Source: an uncultured Acidobacteriota bacterium (GTDB taxonomy: Bacteria > Actinomycetota > Acidimicrobiia > Spongiisociales > ZC4RG35). From it: a stretch of DNA of 64,000 bases. The stretch covers positions 790,057 through 854,056 of the forward strand of contig CAVVCY010000003.1 of the NCBI GenBank assembly GCA_963746905.1, given 5' to 3'. A model generated the notes under the pieces. The model was not told the DNA's origin and did no database searches. It saw nothing but the letters and a program-made list of their open reading frames with translations. Each line of letters opens with the position of its first letter. Position 1 is the stretch's first letter. This document shows positions 18,107 to 20,323 of this stretch, one piece after another. The position numbers and the translations under genes are program-made.

Positions 18107-18897
18107 CCCTCCCCCTCGGCAGGTGAGGCAGACGTCTTGGATTCGAGGAGATAGGTGACCAGATCCTCGAGGTCGGAACTGGAAAGTGACACCGCGGGAT
18201 GATTGTCGAAGCCGGTGACGGTGGCTTCGATTTGGGCGCCGGCGAGTCGGCTGCCGACGTCGGATAGGTCAGGCCCGAAGCGACGGGTGCCCAGCACCTG
18301 ATTGGAGTCGTTCAACGTCACCGCGCCGAGACCGACGTCGGAGACAATCGGCCTGACCATCTGGGTGTGACAGGACCCACACCCCAGACTCTCATAGAGC
18401 TCTTGCCCATGAATTCCGGCCGCGCTGTAGCTGATCACACTGGTGCGAGCGCCCGGGTTCTCAGTCGCGGCTGATGGGCCGACCAGGCCCACCAGCAATA
18501 TGGCGACGAACAGGCCGATCACGCCGGCGAGGATCGTCATCGGTCGATCGGGCTCAGACACGAGGACTGGAGGTTTCCGGTTGTCCCCCTGCACAGCGGG
18601 GGGACCGGTCGGTGTCTCGCCGACCGAGGAGGGTGCACTCGGTGTGGTGGGGACCTCAATCACGACTTGCGGTGCGTCCTCAACCTCGGGCGGTGGGTTG
18701 TCCCCCTGCGTAGCGGGGGGACCGGTCGGCGTCTCGCCAACCGAGGGGGGTGCGTCGATCGATCCACCACCGGCCCACGCCGCCAACACCTCGTCAACGG
18801 TCATCCCGGTTTCGGTGGCTCGGGCCGCGGCGGAGCGCATCACAATTGCCTCGGGGATGCCGAGGGCGGCCGCAGCGGCGGCGCTCAGGTCACTCAT
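18103..18897 (-). CDS. cbb3-type oxidase subunit II-like (CcoO/FixO) cytochrome c
   Basis: GCGSCHTQMVRP and GTRRFGPDL. Confidence 0.85.
   Translation of the reverse strand: MSDLSAAAAAALGIPEAIVMRSAAARATETGMTVDEVLAAWAGGGSIDAPPSVGETPTGPPATQGDNPPPEVEDAPQVVIEVPTTPSAPSSVGETPTGPPAVQGDNRKPPVLVSEPDRPMTILAGVIGLFVAILLVGLVGPSAATENPGARTSVISYSAAGIHGQELYESLGCGSCHTQMVRPIVSDVGLGAVTLNDSNQVLGTRRFGPDLSDVGSRLAGAQIEATVTGFDNHPAVSLSSSDLEDLVTYLLESKTSASPAEGEG
18581..18636 (-). repeat. In-frame REP-like palindrome, copy B
   Basis: Encodes SSVGETPTGPPAVQGDN; two hairpins. Confidence 0.85.
18698..18753 (-). repeat. In-frame REP-like palindrome, copy C
   Basis: Encodes PSVGETPTGPPATQGDN; two hairpins. Confidence 0.85.
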
Positions 18898-20323
18898 CTG
18901 CGGTCTCGTAGACCAGGACTTCTTGAGGGACGGCACGACCCGAGGTGACGGTGCCAATCACAGCGGACGCATAGGCGAATTGGCCAAGAAGGGCCACGAC
19001 TCCGAAGACGAGGGCAATGAGCATGAGCGGATCGGCGGCAGACGCACCAGCCGCCCAACCGTCACCGGCGTCGATGTAAGCGGCGCTATTGGATCCAGCC
19101 AGCCATGAGTAACCGCTCAAGATGCCGGCCGCGCCCATGGTGACCAGGACCCCGCCCACCCCGATCACCGTCAGCCTCATGAACGAGCGGGCCCGCTTGG
19201 TCGACTGCATGGCGCGCCCTGTCACCCTGGGCAGCGCCTCGAAGGTAACCCCGGCCACCAGCAGCGGCCCCACTCCGAGGAGACATGCGTACTCAATCGC
19301 CTCCCAGAAGGTGGTCAGCGCGGTGACGGATCCGATGGCTCGGAATGAGGCAAGGCTCGCCATCACGGCGATCACCACGCCAAAGAAAAGGCCGACCACT
19401 CCCGAGGCGACGCCGGGGCGGGAAGGCACCCGGTCCCAATGACCCTGCAGGGTGAGTGAGACATTGGAGGCGTTGGCCAGGGCACCGATGGGGAAGGCAA
19501 GGCCGAGGGCGGCGGCGACGGCATCGGCCCAGCCTGGGCCGGGGCCAAAGATCAACTGGGCCAGGCCCCACCACACAGCGGCGAAGCCCAGCGACCAAAA
19601 ACCGGCGACAGCTAGCTGGCGCGAAGCCAGAGCGACATCGATTTCCTTGACCAGCGTGTAATAGAAGAGACCGGTCCCGACTGTGAAGACCCACATCGTC
19701 ACGAAACCCGCCGAGAAGAACAGACCGGAATAGGTCCGGGCCAGGGAGTCGGCAAAGGGGAGGGTCCACACGAGGTGGGCGGCGAAGAGAAGCGGCAACC
19801 AGACGACACCGCCAATGACAAACCAGAGAGTCACGTAGGTGCGGTTCTCCTGACGACGAGCGATGGTGGCCAAGGTGTTGATGGCGGGAAGTGAGAGAGC
19901 CGCCAACAGAGGCAGATCGAACCACCAAGGAAGGCCGAACGGTTCTGACCCGTCGCCGAATCCGAATGCAATCGCGACCACGCCAGCCAGCACCACGACA
20001 ACGAGCAACGCAAGATCGAGGCGGGCCAGGGCGGGACTTCTGAGCGGAGCCCCGGTGAGCCGGGGTAACACGTAATAGACACCGCCGACGAGTGAGATCA
20101 CGAGGAAGCCGATCATCAGGGTGAGATTGGCCATCGGCTGCACGCGGCCGAGGCTGACCGGGGAGAGGCCACCGAAACGAAGTGCGAAGAGGGCGAGCAC
20201 TTCGAGCAGACCCCCTAGGACCAAAAAGGTCGCTCCAACGAGGAAATGTGCCGCCGCTACGCGGTCCTCCTCGGCCCCGCCTCCGAGGAAGGCTCGAATG
20301 TCTGCTGATTGGCTGGTCGCCAC
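18890..20323 (-). CDS. cbb3-type oxidase subunit I-like (CcoN-fold) membrane protein lacking the His ligands
   Basis: About 12 TM helices, YYVLPRLTG, YVTLWF, FYY, GFWSL; directly upstream of the CcoO-like gene. Confidence 0.75.
   Translation of the reverse strand: MATSQSADIRAFLGGGAEEDRVAAAHFLVGATFLVLGGLLEVLALFALRFGGLSPVSLGRVQPMANLTLMIGFLVISLVGGVYYVLPRLTGAPLRSPALARLDLALLVVVVLAGVVAIAFGFGDGSEPFGLPWWFDLPLLAALSLPAINTLATIARRQENRTYVTLWFVIGGVVWLPLLFAAHLVWTLPFADSLARTYSGLFFSAGFVTMWVFTVGTGLFYYTLVKEIDVALASRQLAVAGFWSLGFAAVWWGLAQLIFGPGPGWADAVAAALGLAFPIGALANASNVSLTLQGHWDRVPSRPGVASGVVGLFFGVVIAVMASLASFRAIGSVTALTTFWEAIEYACLLGVGPLLVAGVTFEALPRVTGRAMQSTKRARSFMRLTVIGVGGVLVTMGAAGILSGYSWLAGSNSAAYIDAGDGWAAGASAADPLMLIALVFGVVALLGQFAYASAVIGTVTSGRAVPQEVLVYETADE

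Follow-up and report, generated by a model that had tools for sequence, protein, structure and literature searches.

The closest described relative of the gene reported here is CcoN, the catalytic subunit of the C-family (cbb3-type) haem-copper oxidases (HCOs), which is known from the structures 3mk7, 6xkw, 8smr and 9g83. Our analysis concerns pCcoN, a CcoN-like protein that lacks all six histidine ligands of the haem and copper centres. It is encoded in a stretch of 64,000 nucleotides (hereafter the window; contig CAVVCY010000003.1, positions 790,057 to 854,056, assembly GCA_963746905.1) from an uncultured bacterium that GTDB assigns to the class Acidimicrobiia. pCcoN shares with cbb3 CcoN the predicted 12-helix fold, the best sequence matches in PDB and NCBIfam, loop motifs such as GR, YY..PR, W265 and T337, and the gene order, with a CcoO-like monohaem cytochrome c gene directly 3' and a further cytochrome c gene behind it; a CcoO-type docking is also predicted. 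It differs from CcoN in the absence of the six His and of the helix-VII Tyr, in the alteration of two Arg and in a far lower NCBIfam score. The gene cluster departs from a cbb3 operon as well: its third gene encodes a monohaem protein instead of the dihaem CcoP, it lies beside a Rieske/cytochrome b6 operon, and judging from its residues the CcoN homologue cannot be an oxidase.

The NorB/NorC pair of cytochrome c-dependent nitric oxide reductase (cNOR; 3o0r, 4xyd) also combines a related fold (TM-score 0.76-0.79 to pCcoN) with a monohaem cytochrome c partner, but NorB keeps its His ligands and matches pCcoN more weakly than CcoN does. In the bc1-cbb3 supercomplexes of R. capsulatus (6xkw) and P. 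aeruginosa (8smr) a CcoN fold with its c-cytochromes likewise stands beside Rieske and cytochrome b subunits, and membrane-anchored cytochromes c form the bridge. However, the cbb3 oxidase is active there and the genes are not clustered, whereas in our locus the CcoN homologue is dead, a separate caa3 oxidase is present and the association is putative. The nearest precedent, a partial one, is a COX1-like protein of Acetobacter that is called 'deranged' and has none of the metal-binding residues, as cited in Degli Esposti et al. 2023 (PMC10715153). According to the relevant excerpt of that paper, it is also a ligand-less HCO subunit I homologue retained in a respiratory cluster, for which a structural role is proposed; the same description sets it apart as a relic located beside CtaB in acetic acid bacteria, with neither a CcoO-like partner nor a Rieske/b6 link mentioned.

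The neighbouring operon resembles the APWY clade of Rieske/cytochrome b complexes (Kao and Hunte 2014, PMC4122944; Geobacter ExtP/ExtQ according to NCBIfam), which these authors called uncharacterised, in its split cytochrome b6 and subunit IV, the APWY Qo motif and an ExtP score above the cut-off. It differs in its CcoN-like gene, for which the excerpted text of Kao and Hunte has no counterpart (0 occurrences of 'cbb3'). An APWY-type split cytochrome b is also listed by these authors for Ilumatobacter coccineum YM16-304. Our full-text literature search retrieved no description of a ligand-less CcoN, and the available excerpts of Murali et al. 2024 (PMC11214002) do not mention one, although supplements to these papers might list such sequences. 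pCcoN is a pseudoenzyme derived from a C-family oxidase. Its role is probably that of a redox-dead scaffold, which would hold membrane-anchored c-cytochromes as a relay between a b6-type complex III and the caa3 oxidase.

A CcoN-like protein without cofactor ligands

18890..20323, minus strand: pCcoN, CcoN-like HCO subunit I homologue without the six His ligands (open reading frame, 477 residues, GTG start)

An earlier note on this DNA had described the gene as an intact open reading frame of 477 residues with three His, and this is what we found (H26, H183 and H295). H26, at the inner end of helix 1, is the sole conserved His of the protein (118/121 orthologues). The start codon is considered sound because the N-terminus VATSQSADIRAF agrees with those of the orthologues. 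These 121 orthologues (58-93% identity to pCcoN) were drawn from the best matches of a word-indexed homologue search, which retrieved 433 homologues at E ≤ 0.001 among 8000 scored candidates; the best 120 span 58-93% identity, and the named homologues are 'cbb3-type cytochrome c oxidase subunit I' of Acidimicrobiia metagenome-assembled genomes.

pCcoN belongs to the Pfam family COX1 (PF00115), with 80.7 bits against a cut-off of 34.8 and a match that covers profile positions 2-435 of 436, but it falls outside the NCBIfam ccoN equivalog TIGR00780 (110.5 bits versus a cut-off of 583.15). A phmmer search of the PDB sequences returned cbb3 CcoN chains only, headed by 6xkw_n (E 1.8e-15) and 3mk7_A (E 1.5e-14). 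The AlphaFold2 model, calculated from a 61-row alignment, predicts the 12-helix oxidase fold with 12 long transmembrane helices (mean predicted local distance difference test score, pLDDT, 89.8; predicted TM-score, pTM, 0.91). Foldseek places cbb3 CcoN first among the PDB structures (9g83_t, 3mk7_A, 6xkw_n and 8smr_E; TM-score 0.84-0.88, E ~1e-19), followed by cNOR NorB (E ~1e-10) and then by A- and B-type oxidases. The comparison with the COX1 profile and with CcoN structures that the earlier note had called for hence recovers the HCO fold, and the model indicates that pCcoN is a full-length, folded homologue of HCO subunit I.

Catalytic HCOs and NO reductases share six invariant His, of which two ligate the low-spin haem, one the high-spin haem and three CuB/FeB. 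All six columns are H in 21/21 ligand-bearing HCO representatives, and the MAFFT alignment places A65, A205, A255, Q256, I343 and Y345 of pCcoN in them, as expected from the claim that none of the ligands is present. In the phmmer alignment to CcoN, GRLRPLH stands over grvqpmA, the HH pair over AQ and tigHvHsgalg over eaIeYacllg, with A under the helix-2 haem-b His, AQ under the helix-7 HH and I and Y under the two helix-10 His. The helix-6 region is gapped in this pairwise alignment, and it is the MAFFT alignment with the 21 ligand-bearing representatives that sets the His of WFYGHN on A205. The ligand segments quoted in the earlier note are thus present and aligned where it had placed them. 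Five of the columns are free of His in all 121 orthologues (65, A112/S9; 255, A108/S11/T1/G1; 256, Q121; 343, I108/V13; 345, Y117/L2/F2). Column 205 in helix 6 was counted in the representative alignment of 108 rows instead, where it is A in 8/8 close representatives and H in 0/74 ligand-less ones.

The losses extend beyond the ligands. The helix-VII Tyr, which we take to be the cross-linked active-site cofactor of C-family oxidases, is present in 20/21 ligand-bearing and 0/74 ligand-less representatives; pCcoN has A249 and does not belong with the former. Two Arg columns conserved in the ligand-bearing relatives, presumably for the binding of haem propionates, are also altered (R->Q62, R->A437). 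Among the 21 ligand-bearing representatives, 65 columns reach a conservation of 80% or more; pCcoN keeps the residue at 31 of these and alters it at 34. The altered ones include seven conserved His, namely the six ligands and one in the loop ahead of helix 10, and polar columns of the transmembrane helices (T->F213, Y->G315, S->A238, N->G206). Fold glycines, prolines and tryptophans are kept, as are the loop motifs of both faces (G59-R60, R157, Y221-Y222, W243, P263, W265, T291, T337) and W167. By this pattern of residues the cofactor chemistry of pCcoN is selectively erased and its shell kept, and the protein cannot be the oxidase that public databases name. The cofactor-free pseudo-oxidase proposed in the earlier note is upheld by the missing ligands, Tyr and Arg, the altered columns, the retained fold and the purifying selection reported below.

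The former cofactor region is lined by the polar residues N66, Q256, N284, E341, E344 and Y345, which lie at or beside the former ligand positions and are 95-100% conserved among the 121 orthologues. They might constitute a cofactor or ion site without His, which could bind for instance a cation, a quinone or a haem with Tyr as its ligand and have a redox or sensing role. We regard this explanation as very unlikely: the set is not conserved across the wider ligand-less clade, whose ligand columns vary freely (e.g. AAVQVV, ASASTY, AGTRLI), and the two HCO-conserved Arg columns are altered. It is extremely unlikely that pCcoN is a proton or ion channel or transporter re-using the transmembrane pathways of the oxidase; the 12-helix fold and a few conserved polar transmembrane residues (E227, E341, E344) are all that would speak for it, whereas the polar HCO-conserved transmembrane columns listed above are altered, the neighbourhood holds no transport hints and the natural fusion partners are electron carriers.

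Selection, distribution and phylogeny

pCcoN is under purifying selection and not decaying. The ratio of nonsynonymous to synonymous substitution rates (dN/dS; Nei-Gojobori, 14 pairs) lies at roughly 0.077-0.231, with 0.10 for the closest pair (dS 0.13), and relaxed selection, for which the earlier note had suggested this check, is not apparent. Within the same cluster, the ratios of the Rieske subunit (0.10-0.21, without artefacts) and of subunit IV (0.09-0.21) are similar to that of pCcoN; the CcoO-like protein has 0.16-0.38. A few cells above 0.85 with dN 1.6-2.3 for the neighbouring genes mem269, Rieske and CLP1 (one cell is without a number) were set aside as artefacts, because the best tblastn segment alone was taken, at times from different regions in the two loci. 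The frame of pCcoN is intact in the window, no internal stops are present in any match listed from the scan of class genomes, and 101 of the 477 positions are at least 98% conserved among the 121 orthologues. A decaying pseudogene or an annotation artefact would account for the ligand loss alone; it conflicts with the intact frames, the low dN/dS, the conserved positions and a deep clade of 61 representatives, and has a probability close to nil. We rejected it on the results for selection and conservation.

The distribution of pCcoN was investigated in a sample of 301 genomes of the class, including the source genome (G000), with a match threshold of E ≤ 1e-20 and families coded f2, f3 and so on. 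It is present in 67 of them, 34 of which are among the 35 members of its own family (including the unpublished genome G254). Most of the other families sampled from this order also have it, with 6/9 (f2), 13/16 (f3) and 6/7 (f4) genomes. Elsewhere in the class, matches are confined to f13 (1/1) and f16 (1/1), and at this threshold the query retrieved nothing from f12 (0/65) and f14 (0/26).

When 1.84 billion representatives were scanned exhaustively with HMMER, 681 matched at E ≤ 0.001, and for 52 of these the E-value was 1e-30 or lower. Of 108 aligned full-length rows, 74 lack all six His, 13 retain a subset and 21 the full set. The FastTree phylogeny is quick and unrooted, and its deep branching order and count of losses are rough. 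It places pCcoN in a clade of 61 rows (50% clustering) with a local support of 97, of which 59 have 0/6 His; this recurrence across a deep clade shows that the ligand substitutions are not due to chance. The clade comprises unfused forms, fusions with a FixO-like cytochrome c and a small cupredoxin-fused group, and its named members are Acidimicrobiia. When ligand presence is mapped on the tree, at least six changes are counted, and ligand loss in HCO-like proteins may have been a repeated event. HCO-like groups that lack some or all of the ligands are also located near ligand-bearing oxidases outside the main clade (P0158, P0165, P0182, P0196 and P0205; P0201, P0241, P0250, P0256 and P0274; P0184, P0197 and P0272), which hints at independent losses of the cofactor sites.

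The CcoO-like partner and the second cytochrome c

18103..18897, minus strand: CcoO-like monohaem cytochrome c (Pfam FixO, 36.7 bits versus a cut-off of 29.6; haem motif CGSCH)
17063..18106, minus strand: second membrane-anchored monohaem cytochrome c (347 residues, haem motif CAGCH; Pfam Cytochrom_C, 25.5 bits versus 21.3)

A CcoO-type monohaem partner gene adjoins pCcoN and is the only FixO match in the genome. Its product consists of an N-terminal cytoplasmic module, a Pro/Ala-rich linker, one transmembrane helix and a FixO-like domain, and phmmer retrieves the CcoO chains 6xkw_o and 3mk7_B at ~2e-6. The likely start is the ATG at 18897, which overlaps the pCcoN stop, rather than the TTG at 18957 of the mechanical open reading frame; its orthologues begin with MSDL or MSEL. 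As the earlier note had stated, both cytochrome genes keep their CxxCH motif. C173, C176, H177 and H233-P234 are invariant in the CcoO-like orthologues (n=19). The CcoO-like domain (18103-18560, minus strand) is short, and the His-Pro pair stands in place of the canonical distal-Met region in 19/19 of them; the position of the distal Met in canonical CcoO is our assumption. This replacement suggests His/His ligation and a lower haem potential in the CcoO-like protein. The second cytochrome c, which keeps a class-I-like TMP segment, is no CcoP equivalent: the third gene encodes a single CxxCH and reaches 15.7 bits with the ccoP model TIGR00782 (cut-off 180).

A contact between pCcoN and the CcoO-like protein is supported by natural fusions. 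In 8 of 14 distant homologues (27-43% identity), the CcoN-like part is fused in one open reading frame to a C-terminal domain with a single CxxCH, and COX1+FixO fusions are present in the representatives P0174, P0214, P0195 and P0265. As a matter of gene architecture, these fusions are independent evidence for a pCcoN:CcoO-like contact. P0166, P0168 and P0221 are distant ligand-less CcoN-like proteins with lengths of 666-714 residues. P0166 and P0221 carry a C-terminal cupredoxin (plastocyanin/azurin-like) domain in place of the cytochrome c, and P0168 groups with them in the tree.

The complex prediction that the earlier note had recommended was performed with pCcoN and residues 105-260 of the CcoO-like protein, both as alignments, in three runs and with three controls. 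It resulted in an interface score (ipSAE) of 0.87-0.89 (median 0.88), compared with 0.00 for the best of the controls; the docking mark is reached by 58/80 solved complexes versus 2/110 mismatched pairs. The runs share at least 78% of their contacts, with a partner pLDDT of at least 80. In the model, the transmembrane helix of the CcoO-like protein packs on pCcoN helices 5-7. The haem-binding segment 169-189 of the same protein and its H233-P234 are directed at the outer loops and the upper ends of helices 7 and 10, with Q256, W340 and E341 among the residues faced. Given that cbb3 structures have been solved, the result shows the likeness to a CcoN:CcoO pair and not binding by this copy. Docking of the two proteins is supported by the prediction, and their physical contact in the cell is putative.

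The divergent Rieske/cytochrome b6 operon

20309..21118, plus strand: mem269, membrane protein without a known family, encoded by the first gene of the divergent operon (true start probably near 20480-20520)
21118..21567, plus strand: 2x[4Fe-4S] ferredoxin-type subunit, Fer4 (149 residues; Pfam Fer4 families)
21576..22352, plus strand: cytochrome b6-type subunit (Pfam Cytochrome_B, 164 bits; NCBIfam ExtP NF040969, 304.2 bits versus a cut-off of 290)
22365..23414, plus strand: subunit IV-like (cytochrome b C-terminal) protein (Pfam Cytochrom_B_C, 27 bits; KAPWYF)
23360..24283, plus strand: Rieske iron-sulfur subunit (Pfam Rieske, 31.7 bits versus a cut-off of 20.3)
24287..26197, plus strand: dihaem cytochrome c of the b6-type complex (636 residues; Pfam Cytochrome_CBB3 in two stretches, 65 bits; CFDCH and CARCH)
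26194..26583, plus strand: orf129, protein of no known family, last gene of the operon (129 residues; no Pfam match)

The conservation of this neighbourhood links pCcoN with the Rieske/b complex, as the earlier note had assumed. In 33 related loci from public genomes, the CcoO-like gene is located 3' of pCcoN in 30/30 loci that reach that side, and mem269 and Fer4 are divergently oriented upstream in 29/29. The b6-cluster genes even adjoin the pCcoN homologue in 14/14 distant class genomes, in which its identity has dropped to 27-43%; cytochrome b6 itself was flagged in 11 of the 14 by a crude picker of open reading frames. The distant homologues have 0/6 ligand His in 13 cases and 1/6 in one.

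This synteny, which holds down to 27% identity, would also be expected if pCcoN were a structural or assembly subunit that stabilises the b6-type complex or a supercomplex, with the adjacent cytochromes c outside the main electron flux. Such a role is unlikely, in that the CxxCH and the surrounding haem segment of the CcoO-like partner are invariant and in some genomes even form part of one protein with the pCcoN homologue, which argues that haem c is the point of the module. The case for pCcoN as a redox-dead scaffold of electron carriers draws on both the synteny and the retained haem-c motifs.

The cytochrome b6-type subunit passes the ExtP model, which represents the Geobacter selenite/tellurite operon, and the subunit IV-like protein, with its APWY Qo motif and a long N-terminal extension, reaches 51 bits with ExtQ, under the cut-off of 150. 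The best NCBIfam matches of the Rieske subunit are b6f-type Rieske models, all under their cut-offs. Fer4 is 84-99% identical across the loci, and neither a signal peptide nor a transmembrane segment was seen in its translation by eye. The dihaem cytochrome c contains an acidic, Asp/Glu/Ala-rich insert of ~300 residues between its haem domains, with a faint TSP3-repeat match below cut-off. orf129 ranks with the most conserved genes of the cluster (77-91% identity in 17 loci, 29-69% in distant genomes; dN/dS 0.02-0.16). mem269, orf129 and orf219 have no match in Pfam or NCBIfam; the Atlas neighbours of mem269 are hypothetical proteins, and the few members for which a record exists belong most often to Actinomycetota. 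On the other side of the cluster (window positions 14769-17066), genes for a glutaredoxin-like, a SAM hydroxide adenosyltransferase-like and a CLP1-type P-loop protein follow the second cytochrome c gene in the same order in 19/33 loci; most other loci end before this trio or show part of it, and it recurs partly in distant genomes.

The source genome (2.09 Mb, 7 contigs, 88.7% complete) has a single Cytochrome_B match, which is the cytochrome b6 of this cluster, and two COX1 matches. One is pCcoN; the other is a true A-type subunit I (523.9 bits; 522.3 on re-scan of the open reading frame) and thereby the intact oxidase subunit that the earlier note had suggested looking for. Its operon is of the caa3 type and also encodes COX3, COX4, CtaG, a UbiA-family protein and a COX2 that carries a cytochrome c domain. 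Cytochrome bd was not found in this 88.7% complete assembly. One quinol:cytochrome c complex and one oxidase were thus found, which both need c-type carriers between them, and the cluster supplies three membrane-anchored candidates.

The APWY motif of subunit IV and the cytoplasmic-looking 2x[4Fe-4S] subunit leave room for the opposite direction, in which the c-cytochromes of pCcoN would feed high-potential electrons into a reverse-running Rieske/b6 complex and thereby reduce menaquinone or the ferredoxin subunit; the excerpted text of Kao and Hunte (PMC4122944) proposes reverse operation for the APWY clade. We judge this to be quite unlikely, as the only cytochrome b and the only oxidase found, a cytochrome-c-dependent caa3, seem to need a forward flow from quinol to cytochrome c, and no dedicated electron-donor enzyme is seen in the cluster.

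A shared N-terminal module

18760-18897, minus strand: copy in the CcoO-like protein
17970-18106, minus strand: copy in the second cytochrome c
22365-22490, plus strand: weaker copy in the subunit IV-like protein
G000:C3:313392-314813, plus strand: copy in a polytopic membrane protein that matches no known family and is encoded ~2.2 kb away from the caa3 operon

The N-terminal module of the CcoO-like protein, of ~45 residues, recurs in these other proteins. Its consensus is MSDLxAAAAAALGxPExLVxRSAxARAxxTGxxxDEVLxAWAGG, followed by a Pro/Ala/Glu-rich linker. A hidden Markov model of the module, searched against all six-frame open reading frames of the genome, scored 89.2, 87.2 (second cytochrome c), 63.6 and 26.4 bits (subunit IV), with nothing else at E ≤ 1. 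The module has no match in Pfam or NCBIfam. Respiratory subunits might use it as a common tag for docking or assembly.

Proposed function of pCcoN

We interpret pCcoN as the descendant of a C-family catalytic subunit that became redox-dead and kept its 12-helix fold, together with those loops of the outer face on which CcoO sits. With both haems, CuB and the active-site Tyr lost, it would be unable to reduce O2 or NO. The protein probably serves instead as a membrane platform that holds the CcoO-like monohaem cytochrome c at the outer face, and probably also the second cytochrome c, to form a membrane-anchored electron-relay module. This module is genetically linked to the ferredoxin-bearing Rieske/cytochrome b6 complex, which is the sole complex III that we found in this genome, and would pass electrons along the outer membrane face toward the caa3-type oxidase, the only O2 reductase found. 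The scaffold and electron-routing roles listed in the earlier note are in keeping with the fusions, the docking model and the retained CxxCH motifs, whereas the channel that it also named has gained no specific support.

Several points weigh against this interpretation. pCcoN evolves faster than cytochrome b6 (dN/dS 0.03-0.08) and Fer4 (0.01-0.07), and many dS values are near 1, which makes those ratios rough. A pure scaffold would have no obvious need for the conserved polar residues that line the former cofactor region. The successful docking may reflect the memory of the prediction model for solved cbb3 structures. Finally, the reverse running suggested for APWY-type complexes in the Kao and Hunte excerpts (PMC4122944) would change the proposed direction of electron flow.

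A more far-reaching version of the scaffold would make pCcoN the fossil of an ancestral complex III-cbb3 supercomplex and an obligatory wire-holder in a novel type of respiratory assembly, in which the ferredoxin-bearing b6-type complex III, the module of pCcoN, CcoO-like protein and cytochrome c, and the caa3 oxidase would be joined partly via the shared N-terminal module. Several phyla might have evolved or acquired this arrangement of a CcoN shell without cofactors next to an enzyme of the complex III type. We offer this combination tentatively and consider it possible, though doubtful.

Implications

The public name 'cbb3-type cytochrome c oxidase subunit I' is misleading for pCcoN and hundreds of its relatives, and metagenomic studies that use 'cbb3 oxidase' as a marker for microaerobic respiration would therefore miscount these Acidimicrobiia. 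It is rare for a catalytic subunit of core bioenergetics to turn into a conserved pseudoenzyme, as is the case for pCcoN, in which the oxidase fold without its chemistry would seat electron-carrier domains. In the Acidimicrobiia pCcoN marks an uncharacterised respiratory system that consists of a ferredoxin-bearing APWY-type b6 complex and a dead oxidase module, and that appears to be the main route from quinol to oxygen in a widespread order of environmental actinobacteria.

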